32,000 nt of DNA from Candidatus Arthromitus sp. SFB-rat-Yit (GTDB lineage: Bacteria > Bacillota > Clostridia > Clostridiales > Clostridiaceae): the NCBI RefSeq assembly GCF_000283555.1, contig NC_016012.1, positions 480,001 to 512,000 on the forward strand. The letters are read 5' to 3'. Below are positions 3,521 through 23,421 of the stretch, one piece after another. Both the position numbers and the translations under genes were made by a program. Numbering within the stretch: the stretch's first letter is position 1; each line of letters opens with the position of its first letter. Under the pieces are notes generated by a model that was not told the origin of the DNA, made no database searches, and was given only the letters and a program-made list of their open reading frames with translations.

Positions 3521-3721
3521 TGTAAAAAGATACAATAATATTAAGATAATATTATTAAAAGATACTATTTTTTAATATTTAAGCATTAAAAGATATTAAT
3601 TTTTAATAATTTCTTAAATAGAAATTACTATTTCAAAAATTTATATGGATATATAATTAAAACATCAAGTAGGACAAACAAAATTTAAAAATAAGAAATA
3701 AAAGTTTAGGAGATGTTTAAT

Positions 3722-5068
3722 ATGTTAAAAAATAAAATTAAGAAAATATTATCAGTTGTAGCTTTAGGAGCATTAATAACAGTTGGAGCAGGAAGTGTAA
3801 AATCAATGGCAGTTAATACGCAACAAAATACAGCAGCAGTTGTTGCAGAAGATTATTCATATAGTAATTATGGATATGAAGATCTTATACAAGAGATGTT
3901 GGATGAAGGATATATAGATCAAAATAGAGCTACTACTCTTAGAAGTGGTATTAATTCTGAAAATGGACAAATTGAAATAGATAAAACGTATGATTTATAT
4001 TTAGTTGATTTAGATGTAAAAGAGGGATATTACAGCAAAGAAGCTGGAGAAATTTATAAAAGAGTGATAGAAGCAGAATATGCAGGAAATTATGATTTAG
4101 CTGATCAAATATATGACGAGCTTATTGTACAGTTAGATAAAGAAGGAGTAACAGCAGACGAAGATTTAGCAGGGTACTATAGTGAACTTGTAAGTGAAAT
4201 GAAAGATGCTGGATATATAGATCAAGATAGAGCTAATACTTTCACAAATGATATTAATTCTGAAAATGTACAATTTGAAATAGAGAAAGCTTATTATTTA
4301 TATTTAATTGATTTAGATGTAAAAGAAGGGTATTACAGTAAAGAAGCTGGGGAAATGCATAAAAGATTGATAGAAGCAGAATACGCGGGAAATTATGATT
4401 TAGCTGATCAAATATATGATGAGTTTATGGCACAGTTAGAGAAAGAAGGAGTAACAGTAAATGAAGATCTATCAGGGTACTATAGTGAGATTATAAGCGA
4501 AATGAAAGATGCTGGATATATAGATCAAAATAAAGCTAATACTTTTACAAATGATATTAATTCTGAAAATGTACAACTTGAAATAGATAAAATGTATGAT
4601 TTATATTTAATTGATTTAGATGTAAAAGAAGGATATTACAGTAAAGAAGCAGGAGAAATTTATAAAAGAGTGATAGAAGCAGAATATGCAGGAAATTATG
4701 ATTTAGCTGATCAAATATACGACGAGCTTATGGTACAGTTAAACAAAGAAGGAGTAACAGCAGACGAAGATTTAGCAGGGTACTATAGTGAACTTATAAG
4801 TGAAATGAAAGATGCTGGATATATAGATCAAAATAAAGTTAATACTTTTACAAATGATATTAATTCTGAAAATGTACAACTTGAAATAGATAAAGCGTAT
4901 GATTTATATTTAATCGATTTAGATGTAAAAGAGGGATATTACAGTAAAGAAGCTGCAGAAATAGAGAAGAGGTTAGTAGAAGCAGAATACGCAGGAAATT
5001 ATGATTTAGCTGATCAAATATATGACGAGCTTATGGTACAGTTAGAGAAAGAAGGATTATTCCAATAG
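3722..5068 (+). CDS. Secreted acidic repeat protein (signal peptide plus four 101-aa repeats), function unknown
   Basis: N-terminus MLKNKIKKILSVVALGALITVGAGSVKSMA is signal-peptide-like. AGGAG at 3708-3712 sits too close to the track ATG at 3713 and 9 nt from the ATG at 3722. The rest of the protein is four copies of one unit. No anchor motif is visible. Confidence 0.85.
   Translation: MLKNKIKKILSVVALGALITVGAGSVKSMAVNTQQNTAAVVAEDYSYSNYGYEDLIQEMLDEGYIDQNRATTLRSGINSENGQIEIDKTYDLYLVDLDVKEGYYSKEAGEIYKRVIEAEYAGNYDLADQIYDELIVQLDKEGVTADEDLAGYYSELVSEMKDAGYIDQDRANTFTNDINSENVQFEIEKAYYLYLIDLDVKEGYYSKEAGEMHKRLIEAEYAGNYDLADQIYDEFMAQLEKEGVTVNEDLSGYYSEIISEMKDAGYIDQNKANTFTNDINSENVQLEIDKMYDLYLIDLDVKEGYYSKEAGEIYKRVIEAEYAGNYDLADQIYDELMVQLNKEGVTADEDLAGYYSELISEMKDAGYIDQNKVNTFTNDINSENVQLEIDKAYDLYLIDLDVKEGYYSKEAAEIEKRLVEAEYAGNYDLADQIYDELMVQLEKEGLFQ
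3872..5065 (+). repeat. In-frame tandem repeat, about 3.9 copies of a 303-bp unit
   Basis: GGATATATAGATCAA recurs at 3908, 4211, 4514 and 4817 (spacing 303 bp). The peptide unit is GYIDQ..ANTFTNDINSENVQ.EI.K.Y.LYLIDLDVKEGYYSKEAGE..KR.IEAEYAGNYDLADQIYDE...QL.KEGVT..EDL.GYYSE..SEMKDA. Confidence 0.95.
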
Positions 5069-5112
5069 ATTAATTTAGGAAATTTATCTATTGAAAGGTA
5101 AATAAATTAATT

Positions 5113-5146
5113 AAAGAAAGCTTTGTTTCAAAGCTTTCTTTTTTTA
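5113..5146. terminator. Bidirectional rho-independent terminator
   Basis: AAAGAAAGCTTTG (5113-5125) / CAAAGCTTTCTTT (5129-5141), a perfect 13-bp stem with a TTT loop and a following T-run. It lies between convergent genes. Confidence 0.85.
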
Positions 5147-5374
5147 TGTGAGAGCATCACGTACATAAATGACGTCACAGTTTAAATGAGTAAATAAAGG
5201 TTCTATTGATGTTTTGAATTCTCCAAGTTCATAATTTAAAGATTGATTAAATAAAACTTGATTCGTTGTGTTGTTAACAACCAATAAAGTTCCATTTGTA
5301 ATGTCGTATGTGATTTCCATCTGTGAATCATTGGACCTTATATAATTTAATAAATCGTTAATTGAATTAAACAT
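5144..5374 (-). CDS. Small hypothetical protein (76 aa)
   Basis: ORF with AGGAGGTG 6 nt upstream of the internal ATG (MFNSINDLL...). The track start at 5401 lies upstream of this Shine-Dalgarno sequence. I recognise no family. Confidence 0.5.
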   Translation of the reverse strand: MFNSINDLLNYIRSNDSQMEITYDITNGTLLVVNNTTNQVLFNQSLNYELGEFKTSIEPLFTHLNCDVIYVRDALT

Positions 5375-5460
5375 AATTACACCTCCTAAATTTATAAACA
5401 CTTTAATTATTTCAAGTAAATTAGAAACTATTCAATATGTTTTTAAAATTATAGTTTATA

Positions 5461-5469
5461 TGTTAGAAT
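5461..5469 (+). promoter_or_regulatory. Candidate extended -10 element (TGTTAGAAT) for recJ
   Basis: TGnTAGAAT lies 29 nt upstream of the recJ ATG and upstream of AGGAGGAG. No convincing -35 element. Confidence 0.3.
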
Positions 5470-5497
5470 TGCAGTATGAATTTAATAGGAGGAGTGT

Positions 5498-7270
5498 ATG
5501 TTAGAACGGTGGATTTTGAGGAATAGAAATACTTTGGTTGAAGGATTAGAAACGCTTAAAATATCTAATAAAATTTTGAAAATACTTATAAATAGAGATT
5601 TTAAAAATTTTGATGACATTAAAAATTACATATATCCGAGTGAAGTTTTGTTGAATGATCCATTTAAATTAAAAGATTTTCAAAAGGCTATAGATATTTT
5701 GATTTCATTAGTTGAGAGTGGAGATAGGTTAAGAATTGTTGGAGATTATGATGTTGATGGTATAAGTAGTGTTTACATATTGTATAGAACTTTTAAAAAT
5801 ATTGGGATTAATGTTGATTTTGTAATACCTGATAGAGTTAAAGATGGTTATGGAATAAATACAAGGATAGTTAGTGAAGCAAAGAATGATGGTATTAAAT
5901 TTTTAATTACATGTGATAATGGAATTGCTGCTATTGATGTAATAAAATTTGCAAAAGAAAATGGATTTACGATAATTGTAACTGATCATCATGATATTCA
6001 AATTGTTAATGGTGAGAATGGAAATTTTGAAAAGGTTTTGCCAGATGCTGATGTGATTTTGAATCCAAAGCAAGATGATTGTACATATGAGTTTAAAAAA
6101 CTTTGTGGTGCGGGAGTTTGTTTTAAACTATGTTGTGAGTTATACAGGAAGTTTGGATTGGAAAATAAAATAAATGAGTTGATTGAAATAACTGCCATTG
6201 CAACTATTTGTGATGTTGTAGATTTGGAAGGGGAAAATAGATTTTTAGCAAAGAAAGGTATTGAGTTATTGAGGACAACAAATAACATTGGGCTTAATGC
6301 TATAATAGATGTAAATTCTATATCGAGAGAAAATATTTGTTCATATGATATAGGTTATGTGATTGGTCCGTGTTTAAATGCTTTGGGAAGACTTGATAGC
6401 GGTATGAAAGGATTGGATATCCTTTTGTGTGATGATAAGGAGAAGGCTTATGAGCTTGCAAGTGAGATAAAAGATTTAAATGATAAAAGGAAGTCCATGA
6501 CCTTAGAGGGATTTGTTGAAAGTTTGAAAATAATTAAAGAGGAGAATTATCTTAATTCAAATGTGATTGTTATCTACAATGAAAATATTCACGAAAGCAT
6601 AGCGGGTATAATTGCTGGAAGAATCAAAGAGAGATTTTATAAACCCACGATTGTTTTAACAAAAGGTGAGGGATGTTGTAAGGGATCGGCTAGGTCGATT
6701 GAAGGAATAAATATTTTTGATTTAATCTCTGAGAATCGAGATTTACTTGAGGCTTTTGGAGGACATCCTATGGCAGCAGGATTATCTATAAAAGAAGAGA
6801 ATATAAATTTGTTTAGAGATAGATTAAATAAGTCGAGTAGAATTGATAAAGATAAATATATAAACACTGTATATATTGATATTTTTTGTCCAATTCAAGA
6901 AATAGATTATGATTTTGTTAAGGATTTAGATAAACTTGAGCCGTTTGGGAAATCAAATCTAAAACCAGTTATTGGCGATAAGCATTTGAGAGTGTATTCT
7001 ATCAAGAGAATTGGAAAAAACAAGAATTACATTTCTATTAAATTAATTTCTACAGATGATAAAATTTTTGATTTTGTATATTTTGGGGATGCTGAAGAAT
7101 TTGATAAATCATTTAGTAATTCTTATTCAAGAGTTGAACTTGAGAGGTTGTATTCCGGAAAATGTAATATGAACAATCAATTTTTTATTGATGTTTTGTA
7201 TGAAGTGAGTATAGATAATTATAATTTTAGTGAAATGATAAAGTATTTCTTATTAAAATATAGATTTTAA
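5498..7270 (+). CDS. recJ: Single-stranded-DNA-specific exonuclease RecJ
   Basis: DHH-family motifs: IVGDYDVDGISS, ITCDNG, IVTDHHD, and the DHHA1 motif GGHPMAAGLSI. Length 590 aa. Preceded by AGGAGGAG. Confidence 0.9.
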   Translation: MLERWILRNRNTLVEGLETLKISNKILKILINRDFKNFDDIKNYIYPSEVLLNDPFKLKDFQKAIDILISLVESGDRLRIVGDYDVDGISSVYILYRTFKNIGINVDFVIPDRVKDGYGINTRIVSEAKNDGIKFLITCDNGIAAIDVIKFAKENGFTIIVTDHHDIQIVNGENGNFEKVLPDADVILNPKQDDCTYEFKKLCGAGVCFKLCCELYRKFGLENKINELIEITAIATICDVVDLEGENRFLAKKGIELLRTTNNIGLNAIIDVNSISRENICSYDIGYVIGPCLNALGRLDSGMKGLDILLCDDKEKAYELASEIKDLNDKRKSMTLEGFVESLKIIKEENYLNSNVIVIYNENIHESIAGIIAGRIKERFYKPTIVLTKGEGCCKGSARSIEGINIFDLISENRDLLEAFGGHPMAAGLSIKEENINLFRDRLNKSSRIDKDKYINTVYIDIFCPIQEIDYDFVKDLDKLEPFGKSNLKPVIGDKHLRVYSIKRIGKNKNYISIKLISTDDKIFDFVYFGDAEEFDKSFSNSYSRVELERLYSGKCNMNNQFFIDVLYEVSIDNYNFSEMIKYFLLKYRF

Positions 7271-8988: not shown

Positions 8989-10056
8989 ATGAATAAGAAA
9001 ATTATATTAACTGGTGGTGGAACGGCAGGTCATGTTATTCCGAATATTGCAATAATACCTAAATTGAGAGAAATGGGATATGATATTGTTTATATTGGGA
9101 GTAGGACTGGGATAGAGAAGGAATTAATAGAATCACAAAAAATAAAATATTACGGTATAAGTACAGGTAAGCTTAGGCGTTATATTGATATTAATAATAT
9201 TAAGGATCCTTTTAGAGTTATTAGGGGTGTTTTTGAGGCAAGTAGTATAATTAAAAAAGAGAAGCCGAATATTGTATTTTCAAAGGGTGGATTTGTTGCT
9301 ATCCCTGTAATATTGGGTGCATTTAGAAATAGAGTGCCTATAGTTTCTCATGAATCGGATATTACCCCAGGACTTGCAAATAAGATTGCTATGCCATTTA
9401 TAAAGAAAATATGTACAACCTTCCCAGAAACAGAGAGATATATTGGAAGTAAAAAAATCGAGTTAACGGGAACTCCAATACGAAAAGAATTGTTTCTCGG
9501 AAGTGAGATAAAAGGTAAAGAAATTTGTAAATTTAATAGTAATAAACCTATTATATTTGTAATGGGAGGTAGTCAAGGATCTGTTTTTATAAATAATTTG
9601 ATACGTAAGAATTTGGATAAACTTTTGGATAAATTTAATATAATTCATATTTGTGGTAAAAATAATTTGGATAATTCCTTGGAAAATAAGGATGGGTATA
9701 TTCAAAATGAATATATTGGATATGAATTGCCACATTTATTGAAAATAAGTAATTTGATAATATCAAGAGCAGGATCAAATAGTATATATGAAATACTTGC
9801 ATTAAAAAAACCAAATATACTAATTCCATTATCAAAGCGAGCTAGTAGAGGGGATCAAATTTTAAATGCAAGGTCTTTTGCTGATAGAGGATTTAGTGAA
9901 TTTATTGAAGAAGAAGATATAAAGAGTTTTGATGATTTGGGTAATCTTATAGATAAGGTTTACTCCAATAGAGAGAAATATATAAATAATATGAATATAA
10001 ATTCTGACAATTCAATAGGAAATATAATTAATGTTATAGTTAAATATTCAAAATGA
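8989..10056 (+). CDS. murG: MurG, undecaprenyl-PP-MurNAc-pentapeptide UDP-GlcNAc transferase
   Basis: N-terminal LTGGGTAGHVIPNIAI signature, GT28 architecture, later GGSQGS and RAGSNSIYE motifs. 355 aa. Confidence 0.9.
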   Translation: MNKKIILTGGGTAGHVIPNIAIIPKLREMGYDIVYIGSRTGIEKELIESQKIKYYGISTGKLRRYIDINNIKDPFRVIRGVFEASSIIKKEKPNIVFSKGGFVAIPVILGAFRNRVPIVSHESDITPGLANKIAMPFIKKICTTFPETERYIGSKKIELTGTPIRKELFLGSEIKGKEICKFNSNKPIIFVMGGSQGSVFINNLIRKNLDKLLDKFNIIHICGKNNLDNSLENKDGYIQNEYIGYELPHLLKISNLIISRAGSNSIYEILALKKPNILIPLSKRASRGDQILNARSFADRGFSEFIEEEDIKSFDDLGNLIDKVYSNREKYINNMNINSDNSIGNIINVIVKYSK

Positions 10057-10096: not shown

Positions 10097-10681
10097 TTAA
10101 AAATTTTTGTATATACCAGATGTTAGTATGTTTAGGAGTTTATCTGACACAATTATATTCCATTGGTTATTTTTCTTGGATAGTTTCACATCTAAGATTA
10201 CAGAAGATTTATATTTTGTGGATTCTAATGATTCAAGAAATTTTTCGTATTTATTTTGACCATCATTGTTTAGGAATGATGATTCATTTTTAAAAAAGTT
10301 TAATATGTGTTTTCCAAGATCAAAATATGTAAATCTTATTTTTAGAGTTGATGAGTTTAAAAATGTTTTTGAAGATAATATCTCATAATTTATATTAAAC
10401 ATTATGTTTCGTAGTTCAGTAATTATTTTTGATTTAGTCTCATTATCTAATTGATTTAATATATTATCAAATACATTGTTTATATCTGGTATTGATATAT
10501 TTGATAAGTAGGTATTAGCTTGATTGATATCTTTTGATGTATATGAGTACATAAAATCTTTAAAGGCTATTTGACTGTTTTTAGATACTGATAAAGAAAA
10601 GTGGATAATAAGACCTAATGCTATAGAAATTAATATTACACAACATAGTTTTAATAATATATTTTTACCTATAATTTTCAC
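10097..10681 (-). CDS. Membrane-anchored hypothetical protein
   Basis: GTG start after AAGGACGG. Single N-terminal transmembrane segment (LLKLCCVILISIALGLIIHF), followed by a soluble domain of about 160 aa ending ...VILDVKLSKKNNQWNIIV. It loosely resembles small NTF2-like extracytoplasmic domains, but the family is not established. Confidence 0.5.
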   Translation of the reverse strand: MKIIGKNILLKLCCVILISIALGLIIHFSLSVSKNSQIAFKDFMYSYTSKDINQANTYLSNISIPDINNVFDNILNQLDNETKSKIITELRNIMFNINYEILSSKTFLNSSTLKIRFTYFDLGKHILNFFKNESSFLNNDGQNKYEKFLESLESTKYKSSVILDVKLSKKNNQWNIIVSDKLLNILTSGIYKNF

Positions 10682-10731: not shown

Positions 10732-11841
10732 ATGAAAAAGAATAACAAAAAATTAAAGAATTATACTGATAAAAAATTAATTAATTTAAGATTGTTACAA
10801 ATAAGGTTAATAAGTAGGCTGAACGCACCCGATTTAGAGTATAAAATCTATAACCTTCAACAATTAATTAAACTTCTTGAAGGAGATGAATTTTATGATC
10901 CTACATTAGGTAGACAGTATTTGGAAGAAATAAAAAATAATAATTTTAATTGTATTGAGCAAATTAAAGAAAATAATTTGACATTGGATTTAAATTTTAA
11001 AAGTGATTTTAAGGAATTAATATATAACCTTAAGAAAATAATTTACGATGGAAATTACGAAAAAGCAATAGAACTTGGAAATAAAATAGGAGAAATATAT
11101 CAAAAAAAGGATTTGATATGGTTTTTAATAGCTTTATGCCATGATTTAAATGGAGATAAAGAAGAGAGTATATTCTATTATAAACGATCCATACTTTTAA
11201 ATGAATTTGAAGTTAAATATTATTATTATTTAGCAAATGTATATATAGACATAGGTGATTTAAAAAATGCTAATAAGTATATTTCATATGCTTTAAAGTT
11301 GGATTGTGAAAGTAGATATATACTTGAATCTCATGCATATATTTTGTTGCACAACAATCAGTATGATGCTGCAATTGGTATTTTTAAAGAATTTATATCT
11401 GATACGGATCAGTACAAAAATGTTAATAGAATAATTTCAATAATATATTTCCTGAAAGGTATCAATTATTCATATAAATCGAAGGATGGATATCTTTATA
11501 ATATAGATAAGAACGATACATATAATGTTATTGCTTGTATAGACAAAGCTATGGAATTTGATAATAGCGATTTATATTTTAGAGGACATATTGAGAATGC
11601 GAGAAATTCTTTAAAAATGTGTTTTGATTTAAAAAGAATATGGATTCTATTGATAACGAGTTTATTTTATATATTAAACATTCCATTTATTAAAGTTTTG
11701 GTTGTTATTATGTTGTTTGTGATATTCATATCAAGTTTTAAAATGGTTTGTGTGCTTGAACGATTTAAAATAACAAATGATGGAAGTAAAATTGATAATT
11801 TTTGTGATAAAATAAATAGGATATTTTATTTTAAAAGATAG
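10732..11841 (+). CDS. TPR-like repeat protein with C-terminal transmembrane helices
   Basis: AAAGGTGA ribosome-binding site. The central region has TPR-like helical repeats (e.g. YYYYLANVYIDIGDLKNANKYISYALKLD). The C-terminal segment WILLITSLFYILNIPFIKVLVVIMLFVIFISSF is hydrophobic. Confidence 0.55.
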   Translation: MKKNNKKLKNYTDKKLINLRLLQIRLISRLNAPDLEYKIYNLQQLIKLLEGDEFYDPTLGRQYLEEIKNNNFNCIEQIKENNLTLDLNFKSDFKELIYNLKKIIYDGNYEKAIELGNKIGEIYQKKDLIWFLIALCHDLNGDKEESIFYYKRSILLNEFEVKYYYYLANVYIDIGDLKNANKYISYALKLDCESRYILESHAYILLHNNQYDAAIGIFKEFISDTDQYKNVNRIISIIYFLKGINYSYKSKDGYLYNIDKNDTYNVIACIDKAMEFDNSDLYFRGHIENARNSLKMCFDLKRIWILLITSLFYILNIPFIKVLVVIMLFVIFISSFKMVCVLERFKITNDGSKIDNFCDKINRIFYFKR

Positions 11842-12432: not shown

Positions 12433-12819
12433 TTAATCGTTGAGTTCGAATGAGTACGTACCAACACCATTATCATATTTTAAATCTATGTAATATGTTT
12501 TTTCGCTATTAGGGCTTAAGGTTATTTCTTGTTCTGATGGAGAGTTTATATTTAGGTATTCGTTATTATTTTCATCTACAATTGTTATTGATGTTTTACC
12601 TGTTCTAAGTTTTAGTGAAGTTTTTAAGGTGGATTCTTTTGAAATTGTAAATTTATAAGACTCATTTCCAGAAAATTTTGAAAAGTCTTGTGTTATTTGT
12701 GAGTTTGGTTTGAGTTCACCTATTATTGTTCTCTTAGTTTTAGGAGCATTGGAACATGAAGTTAAAAATAAAGTGAGTGTTACAACAATTGTACCGAGTA
12801 TTAAATATTTTGATCTCAT
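12433..12819 (-). CDS. Small lipoprotein with a beta-sandwich-like domain
   Basis: AAGGAG ribosome-binding site. Signal peptide with lipobox LFLTSC|S. The mature part (...SYKFTISKESTLKTSLKL...ITIVDENNNEY...TYYIDLKYDNGVGTYSFEL) has the alternating pattern of PPC-like beta-sandwich domains. That family call is tentative. Confidence 0.7.
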   Translation of the reverse strand: MRSKYLILGTIVVTLTLFLTSCSNAPKTKRTIIGELKPNSQITQDFSKFSGNESYKFTISKESTLKTSLKLRTGKTSITIVDENNNEYLNINSPSEQEITLSPNSEKTYYIDLKYDNGVGTYSFELND

Positions 12820-12912: not shown

Positions 12913-15900
12913 ATGTACGGATTAATTAAATCAAGAAAGGAAGGAATTAAGTTGAGGAAATTAGATTTAAAAATTTTTAAATTTATGATTTTGATGTTAG
13001 TTGCGATTAGTTGTTTGAAAATTTATAGTGTTTATTCTAAAAATAAGGTGGTTAAACAATCTAGATCATATGATTTTGAATTAAATGTTGAAGATTTGAA
13101 ATTTAATTCTGCTAGATTTAGTTGGGTTTATCCAGATGATTTTGAATTTATAGTTGGAGATTACATAAATTTATTTTTGATTAATGAAGAAAGTGGAAGT
13201 AATGGAGAAAGTCCGATTTTTTCTGCTATTCATGGTAAAGATGGAAATGATCTGTCTAATATTACGAGTCTTGATTTTGATTCGCTTACACATTCAACAA
13301 AATATCAATTGAAATTAGAATTTAATCAAATACATGGAGATTATTATAGTGTTGAAAAAAACTTTGAAACAAATGATTTTGAGATATCGGATATCCAAAT
13401 AGATGGGATAGAGGATGGGGTTGTTAAAAATAAATTGATAAATGTTAAATGGAAAACAAATCCTGAATCAATATCCTTTGGAGAAAATGATAAAGTTGAA
13501 ATACTTTTAAAAGAGTTGAGTGATGAAAGTTTTAGAAGGAATCCAATTTTTTCATCAAATAAAGATGTTAAAAATGCAGAATTTTCTCTTCCGGTATTTG
13601 AAGGCATGTATGACCTTCAAATAGTTTATTACATAAAAGATGATATTATTTACAGTGATTTATTTTATTGTGATTTAAAAAGTGGGGGGATAGAGCTTAT
13701 TACTCAAGATATAAAAACATCTTCTGCAAAACTTGTTTTAAATTATCCGAATCAGGATATTTTAAGCGATAATACTAAGGTTAATATTTATATTAGGGAA
13801 GATATGAATCTTGATTATAGTAAAGATCCGATAATTTCATTTAGTGGAAAGGAAGACATACTTAAAAATAAGGAGTATGTATTTAATAAGCTTAAATTCT
13901 CAACAAAATATTACGTTAAAGTTCAATTCATCATTGAAACTTTTAACAAATTTGGTAAAGATGTTCCAGTTGTAGTTGAGAGTAATTGTGAATTTGAAAC
14001 GAAAAAATTTGGTGTAAAAGATTTGAAATTTACTGATGGAAATGAAAATATATCAAAGCTTAGTTGGGATTTTGATGGTGAGGAAATCTTATTTTCTGAA
14101 GGGGATAGTTTAAAAGTTTACATAAAAGAGAGTTTGGAAGATAGTTATTCTGAAAATATTTTAAAAGATATTAGCCTGAGTGCAGAAGAATTATTAACTA
14201 AAAAGGATTTAGATATTACATTTCCAAAGTACGATACAAAGTATGATATTAAGTTCAATTATAATATCGGAGGAAGAAATCTCTTTGAGTATTTAACTCA
14301 CACGGTTTCTTTACCTAAAATTGATTTTGGGGTTAAGGTAATAGGTGAGGATAGCTTAAATTTTAAAATTAAATTTGATCAAAATAAAACTAAATTTGAA
14401 AAAAATGATGATGATAAGATAGAAATTTTTGTTAAAAAATATGGGGAAAACGATGAGGCTTATAGATCTATAAATTTTACGGAAAATCAAATTACTGCTG
14501 AGCCAGAAAAAGCAAAAGAAGGGGATGCGGAAAATATAGTAGAGAGGGAACTTAAACTTGAAACAATTTCATCAGTTTTTGGGGAAAATCAGCCTTCTAC
14601 AGTAGAAGGAGATGGAAACTCACAAAATACTCAAACAGAGAAAAAACAATATGAATTTAAAATTATTGTTAGGAAAGATGGGGCGATGTTTCAAGAAAAG
14701 TTTTATAGAGTTTCAATGGAGGAAAATTCCCTTCAAATTGTTGATGTTGTATTCAAAAGGATAAGTGAGAAAAAAATTGAGGCAAGTGTTGAGTATGCTC
14801 CATATGATTATGAATTTTCAGATAAAGTTGAATCGCTAAGTTATACAAAGAGTAAGGACACAACTGCTAAGTCTGTACTTAAAAAGAGAACATCAACTGA
14901 AAGTCAAATAACAAGTGAATTTAAAACTAATAGGAAGTTTGAAATAAGTTTTGATGATTTCGGAGTTTATAAATTGAAATTTTCATACAAGATGAAGGAA
15001 ACTCAGGCTACAAATAGAGATGGGAGTGAAAGTTCAGAAAGTAAATTTAATATAACTGAGATGGAAAAAGTTTATAATAATAAATTTGATGTTTTTAGAC
15101 TGGAACTTAGAGATGATATTTTTAATGAAATAAAGCTAAATTTAGATTTTGATAGCTATTACACTCCTAAAAATGGAGATAAGGTTGAAATATTTTTTAA
15201 GGTTAATAGTGAAGACGAAACAGATAAAAAGAGCGAAGACTTTAGTAAAGATCCATTAGTTACATTTGTTCATAAAGATAATGAACTTAATTTATCAAAT
15301 ATGGGAGCTTTTGATTTAGCAGGATTAGATGCTGGAACTAAATACAGTTTTAAGGTAATATTTACTCCTAAAGATTCACAATCAAATGCAATAGAAAAAT
15401 ATAAAGATGCAGAAACTAAAGATATTAAAATTTCTAATTTAGTAATTGATCATGTATCGGACATAATTGCGTATGCAAGATGGGAACTCGAAGAAGGATG
15501 TGAATTTGGAGTTAATGATAAATTGGATATTTTTTATAAAAAAGATGGTGAGGAGTATCCCAAAGATCCAAATCAGCAAGAAGAAGATTTGTATATTAAT
15601 GATGGGGTTATTCTTTATTTAGATACGGTTGATACTCAGTATAATATAAAATTTGTGTTTAGAAGTGGAAGTAAAACTTTTGAGGAAGAGGTGGATTTCA
15701 ATAATAAGATAAATGATTTAGAAGTTGAAATTTTAGATATATATGAAACCTCAGTATATGTGAAATGGGATTATCCTGAAAATTATAGTATTACAGATGG
15801 TGAGAGTATTTCAATATTTTTAAAAAGAAAAGATGGAGTTTATGCTGAAGAGCCTGATTATTTTGTTGAACAAAATGATGAGGAAGGAGAAGATATAGAA

Positions 15901-17268
15901 ACATTTAAAAGTGTTAAGATTACAAGTTTATGTCCAAATATGGAATATGATATAAAGCTTGTATTAGATTTTGGAGATGTAGGGAAAAAAGAAAAGGAAA
16001 TCAGTTTTAAATCTAAGGAACTTGATATATCAAATATCTCACTGAAAGCATTAACAAATAAATTCTTTGATGTATCTTGGGAGTTTTCTTCAGATACGCT
16101 AGAATTCGATGATGAGTTGGATTATATAAATATTTATAAAAAAATTGAGGATGAAGAATTTTCAGAATCCAATATTGTTTTTGAAATTGATAAAAATATT
16201 GATAAACGAAACAGTGTAAGAATTGAGGTTGATGATATTTCTAAAAATTATGATGTTAAAGTTGAATATGAATTTTTGTTTGGAAGTATAGAGAAAACGA
16301 TTTCTGGAGGAGGATTATTTTTAGAATTTGAGGAAGATTCACCAAACTTAATTTTGAAATATCCTAAATCTTTAGTATTTGAAAATGGGGATTCTATAGA
16401 TATTTTTTCAAAGCATGAATCTGAAGAAGAATATAAAGAGTTTATGAATATAAAACATTCATCTTCTAAAAATTTAAATGAAATAGGAAGTATAGAGCTT
16501 GATAATCCAGTTTCTGGAACATCATTTATTTTAATTATTAACAACAAGAATACTCAAGTATTCCCTGTTATGGCTAATTATGGAAATGGAGAATATGAAG
16601 GAGATGAGTCAGAATACCCAGTTTTGGATATTGTTAGTGAGATGAAGGGAAACTGGGTGGATATACAGATTCCTGATGAATACGAAGTTGATATTTCATC
16701 AGAAGTTTTAAATAGTATTGGTGGAAATTCTTATTATGCTGAGTTAGAGGATGGAAGCTATGTAATTGTAATAGATAGGATTGTACCGAAAAAAGTTTAT
16801 TCTAATGTGTTTGTTTTAACTTCAGATATAGATGGAAATGAAGTTAGATTTGATATAGGTGAATTTAAGCTTGAACCATATAATTTGCTAGAAGATTTCT
16901 TATATAATTCTTATTATTTTGCATTTGATAGAGAGCCTGATGAAAACGGATACAATTATTGGAAGGATCAACTCGAAGAGGAAGAGAGCAGTATATCTGG
17001 TAAATATTTTTTAATTAATTTGATGTTTGCTGAGAGGGAGTTTGCAGATAGAAATTTAAGTGATGAAGATTTGATAAAAGTTTTATATCAAATTGTGGTT
17101 AATAGACAGTATGATACTGAAGGATTAAATTATTGGATTTCTGTATATGGAGAGTATTTGGAAGAGTTTGGTGGAGATAAGTATGAAGCAAAGAAAACTA
17201 TAGTTTTAAGAATGGCTTATGAGCCTGAGTTCGGAAGATTGTGTGATAAGATGGGAATAGCTTGGTAA
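12913..17268 (+). CDS. Giant secreted/surface repeat protein A (1451 aa): N-terminal signal or anchor, about 11 FN3-like modules, C-terminal DUF4214-like domain
   Basis: Single uninterrupted ORF. An alternative TTG start at 12952 lies 6 nt after AAGGAAGGA. Hydrophobic N-terminus FKFMILMLVAISCLKIYS. Modules recur with W.YP..(Y/F)....GD.I.(I/L)F and L.P...Y..K signatures. Confidence 0.9.
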   Translation: MYGLIKSRKEGIKLRKLDLKIFKFMILMLVAISCLKIYSVYSKNKVVKQSRSYDFELNVEDLKFNSARFSWVYPDDFEFIVGDYINLFLINEESGSNGESPIFSAIHGKDGNDLSNITSLDFDSLTHSTKYQLKLEFNQIHGDYYSVEKNFETNDFEISDIQIDGIEDGVVKNKLINVKWKTNPESISFGENDKVEILLKELSDESFRRNPIFSSNKDVKNAEFSLPVFEGMYDLQIVYYIKDDIIYSDLFYCDLKSGGIELITQDIKTSSAKLVLNYPNQDILSDNTKVNIYIREDMNLDYSKDPIISFSGKEDILKNKEYVFNKLKFSTKYYVKVQFIIETFNKFGKDVPVVVESNCEFETKKFGVKDLKFTDGNENISKLSWDFDGEEILFSEGDSLKVYIKESLEDSYSENILKDISLSAEELLTKKDLDITFPKYDTKYDIKFNYNIGGRNLFEYLTHTVSLPKIDFGVKVIGEDSLNFKIKFDQNKTKFEKNDDDKIEIFVKKYGENDEAYRSINFTENQITAEPEKAKEGDAENIVERELKLETISSVFGENQPSTVEGDGNSQNTQTEKKQYEFKIIVRKDGAMFQEKFYRVSMEENSLQIVDVVFKRISEKKIEASVEYAPYDYEFSDKVESLSYTKSKDTTAKSVLKKRTSTESQITSEFKTNRKFEISFDDFGVYKLKFSYKMKETQATNRDGSESSESKFNITEMEKVYNNKFDVFRLELRDDIFNEIKLNLDFDSYYTPKNGDKVEIFFKVNSEDETDKKSEDFSKDPLVTFVHKDNELNLSNMGAFDLAGLDAGTKYSFKVIFTPKDSQSNAIEKYKDAETKDIKISNLVIDHVSDIIAYARWELEEGCEFGVNDKLDIFYKKDGEEYPKDPNQQEEDLYINDGVILYLDTVDTQYNIKFVFRSGSKTFEEEVDFNNKINDLEVEILDIYETSVYVKWDYPENYSITDGESISIFLKRKDGVYAEEPDYFVEQNDEEGEDIETFKSVKITSLCPNMEYDIKLVLDFGDVGKKEKEISFKSKELDISNISLKALTNKFFDVSWEFSSDTLEFDDELDYINIYKKIEDEEFSESNIVFEIDKNIDKRNSVRIEVDDISKNYDVKVEYEFLFGSIEKTISGGGLFLEFEEDSPNLILKYPKSLVFENGDSIDIFSKHESEEEYKEFMNIKHSSSKNLNEIGSIELDNPVSGTSFILIINNKNTQVFPVMANYGNGEYEGDESEYPVLDIVSEMKGNWVDIQIPDEYEVDISSEVLNSIGGNSYYAELEDGSYVIVIDRIVPKKVYSNVFVLTSDIDGNEVRFDIGEFKLEPYNLLEDFLYNSYYFAFDREPDENGYNYWKDQLEEEESSISGKYFLINLMFAEREFADRNLSDEDLIKVLYQIVVNRQYDTEGLNYWISVYGEYLEEFGGDKYEAKKTIVLRMAYEPEFGRLCDKMGIAW
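13075..16560 (+). repeat. Protein-level array of about 11 divergent beta-sandwich modules of about 100 aa each (protein A)
   Basis: Anchor strings: SARFSWVYPDDFEFIVGDYINLFL, LINVKWKTNPESISFGENDKVEILL, SAKLVLNYPNQDILSDNTKVNIYI, ISKLSWDFDGEEILFSEGDSLKVYI, SVYVKWDYPENYSITDGESISIFL, FFDVSWEFSSDTLEFDDELDYINIY, and others. Module boundaries are approximate. Confidence 0.7.
16876..17265 (+). other. DUF4214-like C-terminal domain of protein A
   Basis: PYNLLEDFLYNSYYFAFDREPDENGYNYWKDQL...LINLMFAEREF...LIKVLYQIVVNRQYDTEGLNYW...EPEFGRLCDKMGIAW. The F..LY...L.R.PD..G..YW......SxEF pattern fits my recollection of DUF4214. Confidence 0.6.
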
Positions 17269-17291
17269 TTTTGTATTTATGGAGGAGAAAA

Positions 17292-20200
17292 ATGAAGACA
17301 TGTATGAAGAAATTCATTATTAATCTCATGATTCTTATATTTTTATTTGAATTAATTCCGCTTGGAGATATGGGTATTAAATTAGGATTTGTTGAAAAAT
17401 CTAGTGCTTATTATACCCAGCTTGATTCAGTTGCTCCAGGTTATGTGATAAGTGCTGAGGAGGGAGGGATTGTATTTGATTTAAGTCAAAGATTATCAAG
17501 CTCGATGAGTGTTGAATCATTTAGTATAAAGAATATGAATCCAGAACAACAGAAAAAAGATTTGAAAGAAGAATCTTCAGATGGAGTTAGATGGTTAACA
17601 AAAGATGAAATGATAAATGGTCATATCTATGAAATTGAAAGTAAGATTTATGATTCTGAAATCGATAAGACATTAACATTTATAAATTCTTTTAAATTTA
17701 CAGATAAAAATACAGCGTACAATCCTAAGGTATCTTTTTCAAATTTTGATGCTAATAGGATGATTACTCAAGATGTTTTTTTTGATTTTTCAAATTGTAA
17801 AGAATTGATAAATAATTCAAATAGATTAGATCTTGAGATTTTAAATTCTGATTTAACAAAGGCAGAAATAGATTCAGTTTTTGTTGATAAAAATGACCTT
17901 GTAAATGCTGGTTATAGATATAAACTTTCCAGAGCAGCATCTATTTTTAAACCGAACAAGGATTATATAATTAGACTTAATGCAGATGGTGTTATTTGGG
18001 ATAAGATGATTTCTTGTTCATTAAAGGCAAATCCTACATTAGTTGAAAATATTAGACCTACAGAGATAGATTTTAAATATTATGCTAAGCAAAGAAATCT
18101 TTTCATTCCGACATTAGATTTTGGAATTTGTAAAACGTTTACTGATAGGCATCATGTTGAAGTTAAGATTATTTTAAGTAATTCAAAAAAAGGTCTTGTT
18201 CCAGTTGAAGTAACAGGTGAAATACCACGTTTAGCAGAAATTAATATTCCAGAAGAATATTGTTCAACAATAATACCAAGTGATATAAGAGTTTATTTTT
18301 CTGATAAATATACTGGAGCTTTACTTGCTGAGTATTTATTTCAAGTTACATTTAAAGAGGGCGGGTGTTTTATGTGGACTGGACTTTCTTATTATGGAGA
18401 AAAAGATATATCAGGTTATCAAATAACTAAAATAACACCAGTTCATGAAGAAAATGATACTACAACTGTTCCACATTCATGGGATGAATTTCCACGAGCA
18501 CATTATATAACTTTATATGATAATAAATTAGAAAATCAAATAGGTGGAGAATATAGATTTGATGTTACAAAAACTAAATATGAATATGTAGGTGCGGAGC
18601 AGAATGTTAAAGGTGCTAACTTTAAAGTGCCGTTTAAAGATATGAGGCAAGGTTTTAATAGTTATAATTTTAAATTTGAATCGAGCAATCGTTATCCAGA
18701 ATGGGGATATGCGTATATACCATTTGGTTTTTATGCGGATATAGTTGAAATAAAAGATTTAGACATTGAGGTAAAGGATTTAAAAGTAAATTCTTCAGGT
18801 AAATATGATTTTAGTTTCGAACTGAAAAATCAAAATGTTATCACAGGTGATAAGATGAGCATTATAGATGATAATGGTAAAGAATATATAGCTAATGTAA
18901 ATACTTCAAAGAGATTTAATTTTAAAGATATTCCATTAGTGTTTGGAGGTAAATATGTAGTTACTTATAATAAAATAAGTTCACTTTTTCACTTTAAATC
19001 TACGGATATGTCTATATTATTTAATCCAGTTGTAATAGGAACTTCTTCAAATGGTCAAAATGTTGTTGAAATTGATTTTGATAAGAAATATGAGAAGATC
19101 CTAAACTCAGATAGGATGAAAAATCGTATTAGAATATTGCACATGAATGGTAATAGCACAGGGAATGAATTTACGGATTTTAATGTAGGAAAACATAAAT
19201 TTACATTAAGTTCAGGACTGACTGAAGGACAAAATTATATAGTGGAGTTTTCAAACTCTAAGGAGGAAACGTATAAAACTACGTTTCAGTATACTACAAT
19301 GAAGCTTGACTTGTCAGACGTAACAGGGACAACAGCGAAATTAAATTGGGAATATCCTAGTAATTATCTAATAACAGATGGAGATGTATTAAATATATAT
19401 TTCAAAAAAGAGGATGCTAACTATCCAGCTATTCCTGATGCTAAAATAATGCATGGATTTCAGGGTATAGATTTTAATGATGTGACAACATATACGATTA
19501 GAAACATGAGTCCAAATATAAATTACGTTGCAAAACTTGAACTTGTAACTAATGAGGGTATGACCTATGTAGATGAAACTGAGTTTGTAACAAGTACTTT
19601 TAAAATATTGAATGAAGAAATTGAAGGTATTTCTGAGGATGGTACTGTAAACAGTAAATCTATAAATTTTAAATGGGATATAAATCTTGGTGATATAGAA
19701 TTTAATGCAGGAGATAAGGTAGAACTTTTTCTTAAATTGCGTTCTCATAATGCATTCCCTAAAACGCCAGTATCGACGATAGATCAAGATTTAAATAGAA
19801 ATAAACGGATTAAATTTGATGTATCAAATTATTATGAAGATTATAGTGCAAAAATTGTTTATACAATAGGTGGAGTTCGTCATACAAGTAAAGTTTTAAA
19901 TTTTAGTGTAGAGCCGGAAAAATTAGAATTATCTGTAAATGATATTACAGATTATTCGGCTGTCGTTAATTGGAAATATCCAGAAGGTATAAATATAGAA
20001 AATAATCATGAGATTAGGGTTTATTTAAGAAAAGCTGGTGATTTAGATTATAGACTTGAAAAGACATATAAACAGTCTGAAACTTCTCTTAAAGATGTAA
20101 CTAAATATAAGTTTGATAAACTTAGATTTGAAACTACGTACCAAGTTAAGCTTGTTTATAAAGTTGGAGATAAGCAAGTTGCAGGAGTAAGTGAGGATGT

Positions 20201-23200
20201 AACACAAGATATCGAAATAGAATTTAGGACGGAAAGTTTTGTTATAAATAATCTTCGTTTTGAAAAGGATATGAATAATCTTGTAAATGTAATGTGGAAT
20301 TTAAAAAATGATAATTATCCTTATGTTAATGGTGATTCAGTAGAATTATTTTTAAAAGAAAGAGGAGCACCATCACAGAATTATAAAAAATTCCAATATG
20401 CAACAGGGAATATTTCAGCAGTGAGAGCATTTAACATAATGATACCTAAATTTAATGTAGATTATGATATGAAATTGACTTATACTTTGGGTGGTAAACA
20501 AGTTAGTGCTTATGGAAATTGTAGACTTGATATGGGAGATATAGGTTTTAATGTTGATGAGATAACAGATACTAAAATTAAAGTTTCTTGGACATACCCA
20601 GATAATTATAGTATTTCAAATAATGATAAGATTGAAGTATCTTTGAAAAATCTTGAAGATGGAAATAATGTGGAATCTGAATCGAAGACACAAAATTATG
20701 ATAATAATAATACTACTATGATTAAAGATTTTAAGGAAAAAGAATTTACTTTAACTAAAGATAAAATGTATGAAGTTAAGATTAGATTTTCATCGGTATA
20801 TGCAGAACCTATTGAGAAATCGTTTAAATTTAAAGCTACTTCTGGATTTCAAATTTTAGGTTTAGTTGGTAAGTCTTTAGATTCTAAATCATTTAAACTT
20901 GAATGGGATTTTTACAATAATAATGAGGAATTTGATTCAAATAGTAAAATTGAAATTTTATACAAAGAAGAACCAAAGGGAAGTTCACAAGATGCTTCAC
21001 AAGACAATAATGTTGAAGATAAATTATTTGAAAATGTTAATCCTGTTTCAACTCGTACTGGAAGTGAATTGAAAGAATTTAAGTCTTATGTAGTTGAGGG
21101 ACTTGATGTAAATAAAAATTATTTGTTTAGAGTTCGGTATACTATTACTGGAGATTCGGGAAAGGTAGTATACAAAGATTTGGTAGGTAAAACAGAAGCA
21201 AGAAAAATAACTTCGAGCGTAATTGATACACAACCTACAGGTGTTAAAATTTCAGTTGAGTATCCGGAGAACTATGAAATATTAGAAGGTGATATCTTAG
21301 ATATATTTATAAGAAGAAAAGAAGAAACGAATTATTCAGTTAATCCTAATTTTACTGGAAAGCATGGCAGTGGGGAAGATGATGTTGACTTAAATGAAGT
21401 AACTGTACTTGATATACTTGGATTATCTCCAAATAAAGAATATTTTTCTAAAGTTGTATTTTGGCCAGATGGTGGTTCGGGAATTAAACAAGAGATGGAA
21501 CTTAGCTTTAAAACAGACGTAGTAGAAGGTATAGGAGAAGTAATTATAGGTGACGTTTTAGATTATGTGGTAAAAGTAGGAATTAAGATGGAGCCAGATG
21601 AGCTTATTTTAAGTGATAAAGATAGTTGTAAGGTTTTTATAAAGAAGAAAGATCAAACTCATTATCCAGATAAATCAAATGGTGAAATTCGTGGAGATAT
21701 ATTTAATGAAGAAAAATTTATATCAGCATATTTTGATGAATTGAACGCAGAGTACGATGTGAAGGTTATAGTGAATATTGGTGGCAATGAGTTTGAAAAG
21801 GAAACTAGTTTTGTAAGTAAGATTGATGATTTTAATATTGATGTTAAAGAAATTAATCCGATGACGACGCAAGTAGAATGGAGATATCCAAATAATTATA
21901 CACTTGTGGATGGTGAAAGTATTCAGATATTTATCAAATATCAAGATGAGGATGATTTTTTAAGTGAACCTGATCTTGAACTTATTCAATCAGATGATTT
22001 GAATTTATCTGATATAAATTTGGTTGAATTATATTCATTGATTCCTGATACTAGATATGAAGTTAAGGTGAAATTGAATTTATTAGAAGCGGATGTAAAA
22101 CCAGTTATTAAGGAATTTACTACAACTGTTTTTGAGATAGAGAATCTTGAAATACAGGACATAAGTAGTGATGGAATGTCTATTAAATGGGATCTGAGTA
22201 CAGAAGAATTAGATTTTATAGATGAGTATGATAATTTATCTGTTTTTATTAAGAATAGCAATGAAGAAGATTATGATTTTTCAAATCCTGTGGCAGAGTT
22301 CACAGAAGGTTTAAATGATATAAGGTCAATATCTTTTCAAACAGAAGATAGCATAGCAGATGTTGATATTTATTTATCATATTTAATTGAAGATTATGAA
22401 GCTGCTATGGAAATATCATATACAGCAATTGATTTAAATGTTGAAGTGCAACAAGAAGGGGTATTAGTTGAATGGACGTATCCACCTGGAATAGAATTTG
22501 AAAAAGATGATAGACTCGATATTTATTTGAAACATGCTAATAAGTCGGGATATAAGACAGAACCAAATTTTAGATATACTAATGGAAAAGATGGCGATCT
22601 AAGTGAATTAAATGAAATATTTTTCAAAAGATTAGGAATTGGAAACTATGTGATGAAGTTTTCATTAATCACAAGTGATATGAGATATAATCCTATAGAA
22701 ATCGAGTTCAATGTGCAGGATCAAGATGTGGTCGGAACAGAACTTAAGTTTAATGGAAAATCAAGTAATAGAAAAATAGAATTAGATATTGTTGGTGATA
22801 ATGAATTTGATTATGAAAAAGGGTTTAACATTAATCCTGAAGGTTTGGATCTTGAGATAGATGAGGTTAGAAATAAATTTATAGTTAAGAATCTGGTTCC
22901 AGGGAAAGATTATAAAAATATTGTTATTACTTTTTACACAGAAGAAGACGATGAAATTAATTTTGTAGTTAAAAATGTAAAGATAAATCCTGAAAATCTT
23001 TTGCAAGAATTTATAACAAATATTTATAAATTTGCATTTGAGCGTTATCCAGATGAGGAAGGATATGGATATTGGCTTGGAAGACTTCTTGAAAAAGGAG
23101 AAGTTACAGGTAAGTTTGTTTTATATAATTTGATGTTTGCAGAACGTGAATTTTCTGAAAGAAATCTTTCAGATGATGAATTAATAAAAGTTTTATACCA

Positions 23201-23381
23201 AATAGTAGTTAACAGAGAATATGATGAAGGAGGATTGAATTATTGGATAGGTGAATATAGAAACACATATTTACCACAAGCTAATAATGATAGTTATGAG
23301 GCACAAAAAGCTATAGTTGCAAGAATGTTACATGAGCAAGAGTTCAAAGATTTGTGTAACAAAATGGGTATCTTGTGGTAA
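17292..23381 (+). CDS. Giant secreted/surface repeat protein B (2029 aa): signal peptide, non-repeat head of about 670 aa, about 12 FN3-like modules, C-terminal DUF4214-like domain
   Basis: The ATG at 17292 lies 4 nt after GGAGGAG and 23 nt after the stop of protein A, with no intervening terminator. The track start at 17262 is a TTG overlapping gene A and is unlikely to be used. N-terminus MKTCMKKFIINLMILIFLFELIPLG. Confidence 0.9.
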   Translation: MKTCMKKFIINLMILIFLFELIPLGDMGIKLGFVEKSSAYYTQLDSVAPGYVISAEEGGIVFDLSQRLSSSMSVESFSIKNMNPEQQKKDLKEESSDGVRWLTKDEMINGHIYEIESKIYDSEIDKTLTFINSFKFTDKNTAYNPKVSFSNFDANRMITQDVFFDFSNCKELINNSNRLDLEILNSDLTKAEIDSVFVDKNDLVNAGYRYKLSRAASIFKPNKDYIIRLNADGVIWDKMISCSLKANPTLVENIRPTEIDFKYYAKQRNLFIPTLDFGICKTFTDRHHVEVKIILSNSKKGLVPVEVTGEIPRLAEINIPEEYCSTIIPSDIRVYFSDKYTGALLAEYLFQVTFKEGGCFMWTGLSYYGEKDISGYQITKITPVHEENDTTTVPHSWDEFPRAHYITLYDNKLENQIGGEYRFDVTKTKYEYVGAEQNVKGANFKVPFKDMRQGFNSYNFKFESSNRYPEWGYAYIPFGFYADIVEIKDLDIEVKDLKVNSSGKYDFSFELKNQNVITGDKMSIIDDNGKEYIANVNTSKRFNFKDIPLVFGGKYVVTYNKISSLFHFKSTDMSILFNPVVIGTSSNGQNVVEIDFDKKYEKILNSDRMKNRIRILHMNGNSTGNEFTDFNVGKHKFTLSSGLTEGQNYIVEFSNSKEETYKTTFQYTTMKLDLSDVTGTTAKLNWEYPSNYLITDGDVLNIYFKKEDANYPAIPDAKIMHGFQGIDFNDVTTYTIRNMSPNINYVAKLELVTNEGMTYVDETEFVTSTFKILNEEIEGISEDGTVNSKSINFKWDINLGDIEFNAGDKVELFLKLRSHNAFPKTPVSTIDQDLNRNKRIKFDVSNYYEDYSAKIVYTIGGVRHTSKVLNFSVEPEKLELSVNDITDYSAVVNWKYPEGINIENNHEIRVYLRKAGDLDYRLEKTYKQSETSLKDVTKYKFDKLRFETTYQVKLVYKVGDKQVAGVSEDVTQDIEIEFRTESFVINNLRFEKDMNNLVNVMWNLKNDNYPYVNGDSVELFLKERGAPSQNYKKFQYATGNISAVRAFNIMIPKFNVDYDMKLTYTLGGKQVSAYGNCRLDMGDIGFNVDEITDTKIKVSWTYPDNYSISNNDKIEVSLKNLEDGNNVESESKTQNYDNNNTTMIKDFKEKEFTLTKDKMYEVKIRFSSVYAEPIEKSFKFKATSGFQILGLVGKSLDSKSFKLEWDFYNNNEEFDSNSKIEILYKEEPKGSSQDASQDNNVEDKLFENVNPVSTRTGSELKEFKSYVVEGLDVNKNYLFRVRYTITGDSGKVVYKDLVGKTEARKITSSVIDTQPTGVKISVEYPENYEILEGDILDIFIRRKEETNYSVNPNFTGKHGSGEDDVDLNEVTVLDILGLSPNKEYFSKVVFWPDGGSGIKQEMELSFKTDVVEGIGEVIIGDVLDYVVKVGIKMEPDELILSDKDSCKVFIKKKDQTHYPDKSNGEIRGDIFNEEKFISAYFDELNAEYDVKVIVNIGGNEFEKETSFVSKIDDFNIDVKEINPMTTQVEWRYPNNYTLVDGESIQIFIKYQDEDDFLSEPDLELIQSDDLNLSDINLVELYSLIPDTRYEVKVKLNLLEADVKPVIKEFTTTVFEIENLEIQDISSDGMSIKWDLSTEELDFIDEYDNLSVFIKNSNEEDYDFSNPVAEFTEGLNDIRSISFQTEDSIADVDIYLSYLIEDYEAAMEISYTAIDLNVEVQQEGVLVEWTYPPGIEFEKDDRLDIYLKHANKSGYKTEPNFRYTNGKDGDLSELNEIFFKRLGIGNYVMKFSLITSDMRYNPIEIEFNVQDQDVVGTELKFNGKSSNRKIELDIVGDNEFDYEKGFNINPEGLDLEIDEVRNKFIVKNLVPGKDYKNIVITFYTEEDDEINFVVKNVKINPENLLQEFITNIYKFAFERYPDEEGYGYWLGRLLEKGEVTGKFVLYNLMFAEREFSERNLSDDELIKVLYQIVVNREYDEGGLNYWIGEYRNTYLPQANNDSYEAQKAIVARMLHEQEFKDLCNKMGILW
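19299..22988 (+). repeat. Protein-level array of about 12 beta-sandwich modules of about 100 aa each, two subtypes alternating (protein B)
   Basis: Type-1 anchors: TAKLNWEYPSNYLITDGDVLNIYF, SAVVNWKYPEGINIENNHEIRVYL, KIKVSWTYPDNYSISNNDKIEVSL, GVKISVEYPENYEILEGDILDIFI, TTQVEWRYPNNYTLVDGESIQIFI, GVLVEWTYPPGIEFEKDDRLDIYL. These interleave with type-2 anchors: SINFKWDINLGDIEFNAGDKVELFL, LVNVMWNLKNDNYPYVNGDSVELFL, SFKLEWDFYNNNEEFDSNSKIEILY, VVKVGIKMEPDELILSDKDSCKVFI, GMSIKWDLSTEELDFIDEYDNLSVFI. Confidence 0.75.
22989..23378 (+). other. DUF4214-like C-terminal domain of protein B
   Basis: PENLLQEFITNIYKFAFERYPDEEGYGYWLGRL...LYNLMFAEREF...LIKVLYQIVVNREYDEGGLNYW...EQEFKDLCNKMGILW. It is collinear with the tail of protein A. 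Confidence 0.6.
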
Positions 23382-23385
23382 TATA

Positions 23386-23421
23386 TTAACCATCAATTTA
23401 TATTGATGGTTAATTTTTTTT
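23386..23421 (+). terminator. Strong rho-independent terminator ending the giant-protein operon
   Basis: TTAACCATCAAT (23386-23397) / ATTGATGGTTAA (23402-23413), a perfect 12-bp stem with a 4-nt loop, followed by T8. Confidence 0.9.

Follow-up and report, generated by a model that had tools for sequence, protein, structure and literature searches.

Segmented filamentous bacteria (SFB) are model gut commensals that drive T helper 17 (Th17), IgA and CD8 T-cell responses through surface proteins. Pamp et al. (2012) described SFB-specific secreted proteins, Cluster.1 (19 members) and Cluster.3, united by a conserved C-terminus that is similar to PF13946 (DUF4214) and predicted to resemble the phycobilisome linker 2KY4 (PMC3371716). 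Jonsson et al. (2020) reported that SFB lack a sortase. They described a C-terminal motif shared by at least 14 surface proteins, one of them the Th17 antigen p3340, and proposed an anchoring role for it; p3340 was located at the cell wall by immuno-electron microscopy (PMC7474095). Cruz et al. (2025) named DUF4214 as the likely surface-anchoring domain of SFB and imply that an SFB peptidoglycan hydrolase carries the module (PMC12780176), and a 2026 preprint identified the DUF4214 protein SFBNYU_003240 as a CD8 T-cell antigen (bioRxiv 10.64898/2026.04.29.720676). The tail or motif is reported for at least two known T-cell antigens (PMC7474095; bioRxiv 10.64898/2026.04.29.720676). Here we analyze two adjacent genes, A and B, in a 32,000-nucleotide stretch of the genome of Candidatus Arthromitus sp. 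SFB-rat-Yit (NC_016012.1, positions 480,001 to 512,000), which we call the window throughout. Both of their products end in a conserved tail of about 130 residues.

A and B fit the published SFB family well. They are encoded in an SFB-lineage genome, start with a predicted N-terminal export signal, continue with a variable body, and finish with a C-terminal DUF4214 region. One Cluster.3 member also has an FN3 domain, and lengths of up to 2040 aa have been reported, matching B (PMC3371716; PMC7474095). We see no essential difference between A and B and these proteins. The tail had been flagged as non-canonical in an initial annotation made from the sequence of this window. It is not new, having been described in 2012. 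The tail is a real and functionally important feature, and both the core finding and the main hypothesis about it are rediscoveries of published work. Our analysis adds three points to what had been published: the terminal motif is part of the fold and not a signal, the tail is more conserved than the neighbouring housekeeping genes, and related proteins place the module where wall-binding repeats usually sit on autolysins. We also considered whether A or B might be p3340, SFBNYU_004990 or SFBNYU_003240, and ruled this out. Neither the known SFB T-cell epitopes nor the reported human-SFB DUF4214 peptides are encoded in the window.

Identity and conservation of the tail

The tail is by far the best conserved part of A and B, as the initial annotation had claimed. 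Translation of 16876-17265 and 22989-23381 reproduced the quoted tail strings exactly, including the endings RLCDKMGIAW and DLCNKMGILW and the stop codons. Homologues were compared by BLASTP and profile searches, and families in window proteins were sought in Pfam and NCBIfam. The tails share 79 of 129 aligned residues (61%), compared with 11-35% in forty-column blocks across most of the preceding 670 residues, where a single block reaches 49%. Identity over the whole proteins is 27% by BLASTP. The module directly before the tail, also noted earlier as homologous in A and B, is indeed so, but its conservation is weak (about 35%) and it is predicted to be beta-stranded. Among positions where A and B share an amino acid, 62% of those in the tail and 60% of those in the body also share the codon. 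The longest stretch of DNA that matches exactly in the two tails is 15 nt. This equal codon identity, together with the short DNA match, indicates that the tail similarity reflects selection on the protein and not recent gene conversion. Both tails are acidic (isoelectric point 4.3-5.0) and contain 15-19% aromatic residues. A six-frame profile search found no third copy in the window beyond A and B.

The same constraint is evident between species. The closest homologue of the tail is in a protein of Candidatus Arthromitus SFB-5 (94% identity), and Ca. Dwaynia gallinarum and Ca. Arthromitus metagenome-assembled genomes contain orthologous loci. Tails of three or four of the four paralogue types, here called A, B, C and D, are present in each of three further SFB-like genomes. 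Full-length representatives show one layout for all four types: a signal-like segment at the N-terminus, then 6-11 copies of a shared FN3-like repeat (about 95 aa), and last the tail. B and the C-type have in addition a long N-terminal head, which has no family match. Two other genomes retain the tandem order of A and B, and the position of ZapA downstream of B is likewise kept in other SFB-like genomes. Across species, identity is 75-82% for the tail, compared with 57-63% for the neighbouring, syntenic ZapA and rubrerythrin and 41-47% for the repeats of the body. The tail is under unusually strong purifying constraint while the body diverges. The A-type and B-type tails each cluster with their own orthologues across species, so the duplication that produced them is old.

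The initial annotation recognized a DUF4214 pattern in the tails, and a Pfam search confirmed it. The tails score 59.4 and 62.4 bits on PF13946, well over the gathering cut-off of 23.2 (E-values 3.6e-16 and 4.3e-17, with two matched stretches per tail), and contain its repeat pattern Y.....R..D..G...W ... EF. Alignment with relatives reveals an internal duplication, in which F/L..Y.....R..D..G...W...EF occurs twice before a closing segment. An alignment of 22 sequences, distant relatives included, shows nine invariant positions (F8, Y13, R19, G25, E54, Y70, R76, G82 and E118) and five that are nearly invariant (D22, W29, D79, W86 and F119). The tail is a single phycobilisome-linker-like module, made of two DUF4214 half-repeats and a short closing helix. 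In Pfam, A and B match only fn3, DUF4214 and, below threshold, Pur_ac_phosph_N, with the bodies matching fn3 alone. NCBIfam gave no match for A, B or three small neighbouring open reading frames (ORFs).

Structure prediction leads to the same superfamily. An AlphaFold model of tail B, made from a 10-sequence alignment, has eight helices (predicted local distance difference test, pLDDT, 80.6; predicted template modelling score, pTM, 0.73), and in a model of the last 230 residues of B the same helices follow a beta-strand module. The top 48 Foldseek matches of the tail B model in the PDB were all phycobilisome linker domains, with a probability of about 1 and TM-scores of 0.47-0.54; the E-values of these matches were weak (0.02-0.8). 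None of four SFB tails was matched by PF00427, with E-values as high as 10 allowed, and a sequence search of the PDB with a profile of SFB tails only gave no matches. A broader profile that combines SFB tails with distant relatives does match the ApcE linker domains (E 1.3e-8) and 2KY4 (E 0.005), and 44 of 125 close relatives pass PF00427 with E below 1e-4. These last two results support homology of the tail to the phycobilisome linker superfamily. The known linker domains (PF00427; PDB 2KY4, 3OSJ and 3PRU; the ApcE linkers) resemble the tails in helical fold and by profile homology. They differ in that the tails themselves are not matched by PF00427 and in their setting, A and B being extracellular proteins of a non-photosynthetic gut bacterium. 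For this reason the partner of the tail cannot be a phycobiliprotein. Phycobiliprotein genes are not expected in a gut clostridial lineage.

The closing motif and the module in other proteins

The near-identical ends of A and B had been read as a possible terminal signal, a reading that does not survive comparison with relatives. The consensus of the relatives' modules ends SxEFxxxCxxYGI, and the extreme C-terminal string of the tails aligns with this module-closing EF...C..YGI. Patterns of this kind occur 221 times in 131 non-SFB relatives. Of these, 194 are separated from the C-terminus by more than 10 residues, and one copy follows the next at intervals of about 128-135 residues. Since the aligned pattern is mostly internal and recurs at module-length spacing, these alignments identify C.KMGI.W as the SFB version of the fold element at the end of each module, and not as a signal.

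The four paralogue types in SFB-like genomes lead to a similar view. A-type tails end in C.QMGI.W and B-type tails in C.KMGILW. C-type tails end in GIFW followed by a conserved 12-residue extension, and D-type tails end in MTSMGIDY or LILGMNLKY, in which Cys and Trp are both missing. These ends do not support a strict C-terminal signal, because the C-type extends 12 residues past the Trp and the D-type dispenses with the Cys and the Trp. Recognition by a secretion system, another of the suggested roles, is unlikely as well: A and B have predicted N-terminal Sec-type signals, and the module is internal and tandem in other proteins. The C-type extension reads RQ.DQDAAGVPS or similar and is kept in three SFB-like species.

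An exhaustive profile search returned 6380 representative proteins at E up to 0.001; of the 150 best-scoring ones, most have 2-7 modules in tandem. In 116 of 158 proteins, no more than 20 residues separate the end of the last module from the C-terminus. Cell-wall-active fusion partners among 125 close relatives are Amidase_3 (3), Glucosaminidase (4), GH25 (2), YkuD (2), VanY (1), Polysacc_deac_1 (2) and VgrG3-like_C (3), which amounts to up to 17 proteins or about one in seven. Other partners are BspA leucine-rich repeats (15), Big_2 (11) and transglutaminase (8). By analogy, tandem copies combined with enzyme fusions are the usage pattern of Gram-positive wall-targeting repeats.

The modules of these tandem DUF4214 proteins, which are extracellular and probably from Gram-positive bacteria, align end to end with the SFB tail, and the alignment covers the two R..D..G...W half-repeats as well as the closing EF...C..YGI. 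These proteins carry 2-7 copies in tandem, against a single copy in the SFB proteins, lack an SFB insertion of about 10 residues, and continue with.PG where the SFB module ends in Trp. Their passengers are enzymes, leucine-rich repeats or Big_2 domains, in contrast to the FN3-like rods of SFB.

A Gram-negative counterpart is Psh, an RTX-DUF4214 protein of Pseudomonas putida (10.64898/2026.09.02.748959). Like A and B it is secreted, has a C-terminal DUF4214 region, and is proposed to stay on the surface glycan of its producer. Unlike them it is a type I secretion substrate with RTX repeats, and its binding to O-antigen was deduced by its authors. In a distant, probably proteobacterial genome we observed a HemolysinCabind-DUF4214 protein adjoining a DUF4214-only protein (3851-5627 of that locus). 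Methyltransferases and a polysaccharide lyase lie near this pair, echoing the surface-glycan neighbourhood reported for Psh.

Proposed retention at the envelope and competing explanations

The role that we favor for the tail, and to which we give slightly better than even chances, is that of a non-covalent envelope-retention module. Following Sec export, the tail would hold the C-terminal end of long FN3-like rods on the SFB envelope, with the variable repeats, and in B the 620-residue head, pointing outward. Its partner would most likely be a conserved component of the cell wall, either peptidoglycan or a wall polysaccharide. Both envelope binding itself and the identity of the ligand are parts of this proposal that we infer. 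Envelope retention is favored by the fusions to wall enzymes, the terminal and tandem use of the module, and the published wall localization of p3340, as well as by the domain identity and fold of the tail, the selection on it and the four-member paralogue family.

Cell-wall anchoring was among the roles suggested in the initial annotation and is the best supported of them. It agrees with the fusion partners in relatives and with the lack of any other wall anchor found in A and B, and it is already a hypothesis in the SFB literature (PMC7474095, PMC12780176). The accompanying statement that A and B have no other anchor stands in part. Neither protein has an LPXTG motif followed by a hydrophobic segment and a basic C-terminal tail, a C-terminal hydrophobic segment, or a match to the Pfam models for SLH, CWB2, LysM, SH3b or choline-binding domains. 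Both proteins do have an N-terminal hydrophobic segment, where their only hydrophobic windows lie. The classical wall-binding modules of these five kinds resemble the tail in their job, as we propose it for the tail, and in their placement on autolysins and large surface proteins, often terminal and repeated. The tail differs from them in its unrelated, all-helical fold.

Several observations weigh against envelope retention. If the N-terminal hydrophobic segments of A and B stay uncleaved, they could anchor the proteins in the membrane, and a second anchor would not be needed. No binding experiment has been published for any DUF4214 domain, and the O-antigen binding of Psh was deduced largely in silico (10.64898/2026.09.02.748959). 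The only structurally characterized relatives, the phycobilisome linkers, bind proteins and not glycans. Because the tails are acidic, they cannot be held by mere electrostatic attraction to anionic wall polymers; if they bind, they must bind specifically. A few relatives also have choline-binding or SH3_3 domains, and in these the module is not the only candidate anchor. Finally, the taxonomic range of the closest non-SFB relatives, probably Gram-positive, was read from their partner domains only.

The preference of the linkers for protein partners raises the possibility that the tail is a docking or lattice module that plugs into another SFB surface protein or into itself. The rods would then be assembled into regular SFB surface layers, or A would be paired with B, in the way that linkers work in phycobiliprotein rings. 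The fold and profile homology to linker domains, whose known role is protein docking, agrees with this, as do the co-transcription of A and B, itself very probable, and the retention of their tandem arrangement in two other genomes. SFB also bear repetitive surface layers of unknown composition (PMC12780176). We nevertheless regard docking as possible but rather doubtful. Across species the tails cluster according to paralogue type and give no hint that A and B co-evolve as a pair, so that the suggested pairing of A with B lacks specific support; no partner protein was identified, and the presence of the module on peptidoglycan hydrolases and many unrelated passengers in relatives fits a common envelope ligand better. 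The same peptidoglycan hydrolases, being autolysin-type enzymes, tell against a tail that binds a ligand of the host or environment, such as mucus or epithelial glycans, in place of the bacterium's own envelope. SFB do attach to the epithelium by adhesins that are unknown (PMC7474095), and aromatic residues are abundant in the tail. Across SFB of different hosts, the tail is more conserved than housekeeping neighbours while the body varies, the reverse of what is expected of a host-specific part, and we consider a host ligand quite improbable.

That the residues C.KMGI.W are a C-terminal sorting or secretion signal for a dedicated export or processing machine might be suspected from the near-identical endings directly at the stop codons, and from the fact that Gram-negative DUF4214 proteins are often type I secretion substrates. 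The largely internal position of the aligned closing motif in relatives, the divergent C-type and D-type ends and the predicted Sec-type signals of A and B all speak against such a signal, and SFB are reported to lack sortase (PMC7474095); we hold it to be highly improbable. Recent gene conversion between neighbouring paralogues, or chance, would deprive the similarity of functional meaning. In its favor, the two genes are adjacent and paralogous. The codon identity in tail and body, the short longest DNA match, the grouping of the tails with their own orthologues, and Pfam E-values of about 1e-16 leave these explanations with next to no chance. Gene conversion as the cause of the tail similarity was examined as a candidate and is refuted by the codon identity and the type-wise grouping of tails across species.

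If the tail retains proteins at the envelope, A, B and the other two paralogue types might be the building blocks of the hair-like structures and the hair-like layer recently imaged on SFB, planted in the wall by their DUF4214 tails. We think this unlikely. Eleven FN3-like repeats of roughly 3.5-4 nm each would give a rod of about 40 nm, and the tip structures of SFB, at 34 +/- 6 nm, are of the same order (PMC12780176). With a reported width of 1.3 nm, these structures are narrower than an FN3 domain, which argues against the proposal (PMC12780176). Were it true, the variable repeats and heads would face the host, and DUF4214 would represent a new type of wall anchor for Gram-positive bacteria, taking the place of sortase in the SFB lineage. 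Identification of the DUF4214 ligand would explain how sortase-less SFB hold their surface proteins. The domain, which our search places in more than 6000 protein clusters (50% identity), would thereby also gain a function.

Genes A and B and their surroundings

Genes A and B are arranged head to tail (Table 1). They very probably form one operon, judging from the ribosome-binding site (RBS) of B 13 nt past the stop codon of A and the terminator-like hairpin directly after B. For gene A, the TTG codon at 12952 is the more likely start, since an RBS (GGAAGGA, 12939-12945) precedes it.

Table 1. Features of genes A and B, in window coordinates
Feature	Position	Strand	Remarks
Gene A	12913..17268	+	1451 aa counted from ATG 12913; likelier start TTG 12952
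Gene A, layout			Signal peptide (predicted), 11 FN3-like repeats, beta module, DUF4214 tail
Predicted Sec-type signal of A	12952..13032	+	MRKLDLK-IFKFMILMLVAISCL-KIYSVYS; sole hydrophobic segment in A
FN3-like repeats of A	13054..16560	+	11 in tandem, ~97 aa each; aa 48-1216
Divergent beta module preceding tail A	16705..16872 (approximate limits)	+	From sequence comparison and analogy with the model of B
Tail A	16876..17265	+	DUF4214 / phycobilisome-linker-like module, 130 aa; end RLCDKMGIAW
RBS of gene B	17281..17287	+	GGAGGAG; 13 nt beyond stop codon of A
Gene B	17292..23381	+	2029 aa
Gene B, layout			Signal sequence (predicted), ~620-aa N-terminal head, 11 FN3-like repeats, beta module, DUF4214 tail
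FN3-like repeats of B	19278..22691	+	11 in tandem; aa 663-1800
Beta-strand module preceding tail B	22821..22982	+	From model; strands at residues 47-98 of the modelled segment
Tail B	22989..23378	+	Eight-helix (model) DUF4214 / phycobilisome-linker-like module; stop codon 23379-23381
Tail B, first DUF4214 half-repeat	23001..23156	+	F..Y.....R..D..G...W ... EF
Tail B, second DUF4214 half-repeat	23172..23345	+	Contains SFB-specific insertion, ~10 residues
Tail B, closing motif	23340..23378	+	EFKDLCNKMGILW; SFB version of family-wide EF...C..YGI
Terminator-like hairpin directly 3' of B	23385..23414	+	13-bp stem, then T run

The head of B (window 17412-19277, B residues ~41-662, about 620 residues) has no Pfam or NCBIfam match, and C-type paralogues have a comparable N-terminal head of about 420 residues. 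The B head is a candidate for the distal, ligand-binding part of the rod. In the public assembly of run DRR001117 (1-2977), where protein B is identical, the annotation divides gene A into two products, 1366 and 81 aa long. This split call points to a frameshift or an assembly difference in A just inside the tail.

Divergent from A, on the minus strand, lies a gene for a predicted 128-aa lipoprotein (window 12433-12819, lipobox LTSC) with no family match. It is probably the neighbouring lipoprotein mentioned in the initial annotation. The interval from murG (8989-10056) to the A-B operon also contains a gene for a TPR-repeat protein whose C-terminal end is hydrophobic (10732-11841) and an unannotated membrane-anchored ORF on the minus strand (10097-10681). 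No link of either to A or B was established.

Farther upstream, the ORF at 2846-3418 matches the ssDNA-binding protein family of Enterobacter phage Enc34 (E 2e-42), and its neighbours (207-1253, 1877-2701 and 3713-5068) have no or only weak matches. This region may be a remnant of a prophage or mobile element. The window as a whole has a G+C content of about 26%, with most genes, including nearly all long ORFs, on the plus strand. GC skew is strongly positive over its entire length (1-32000; 0.26-0.45 in 2-kb windows). Skew and ORF orientation both fit a leading-strand stretch of the chromosome of a low-GC Firmicute.

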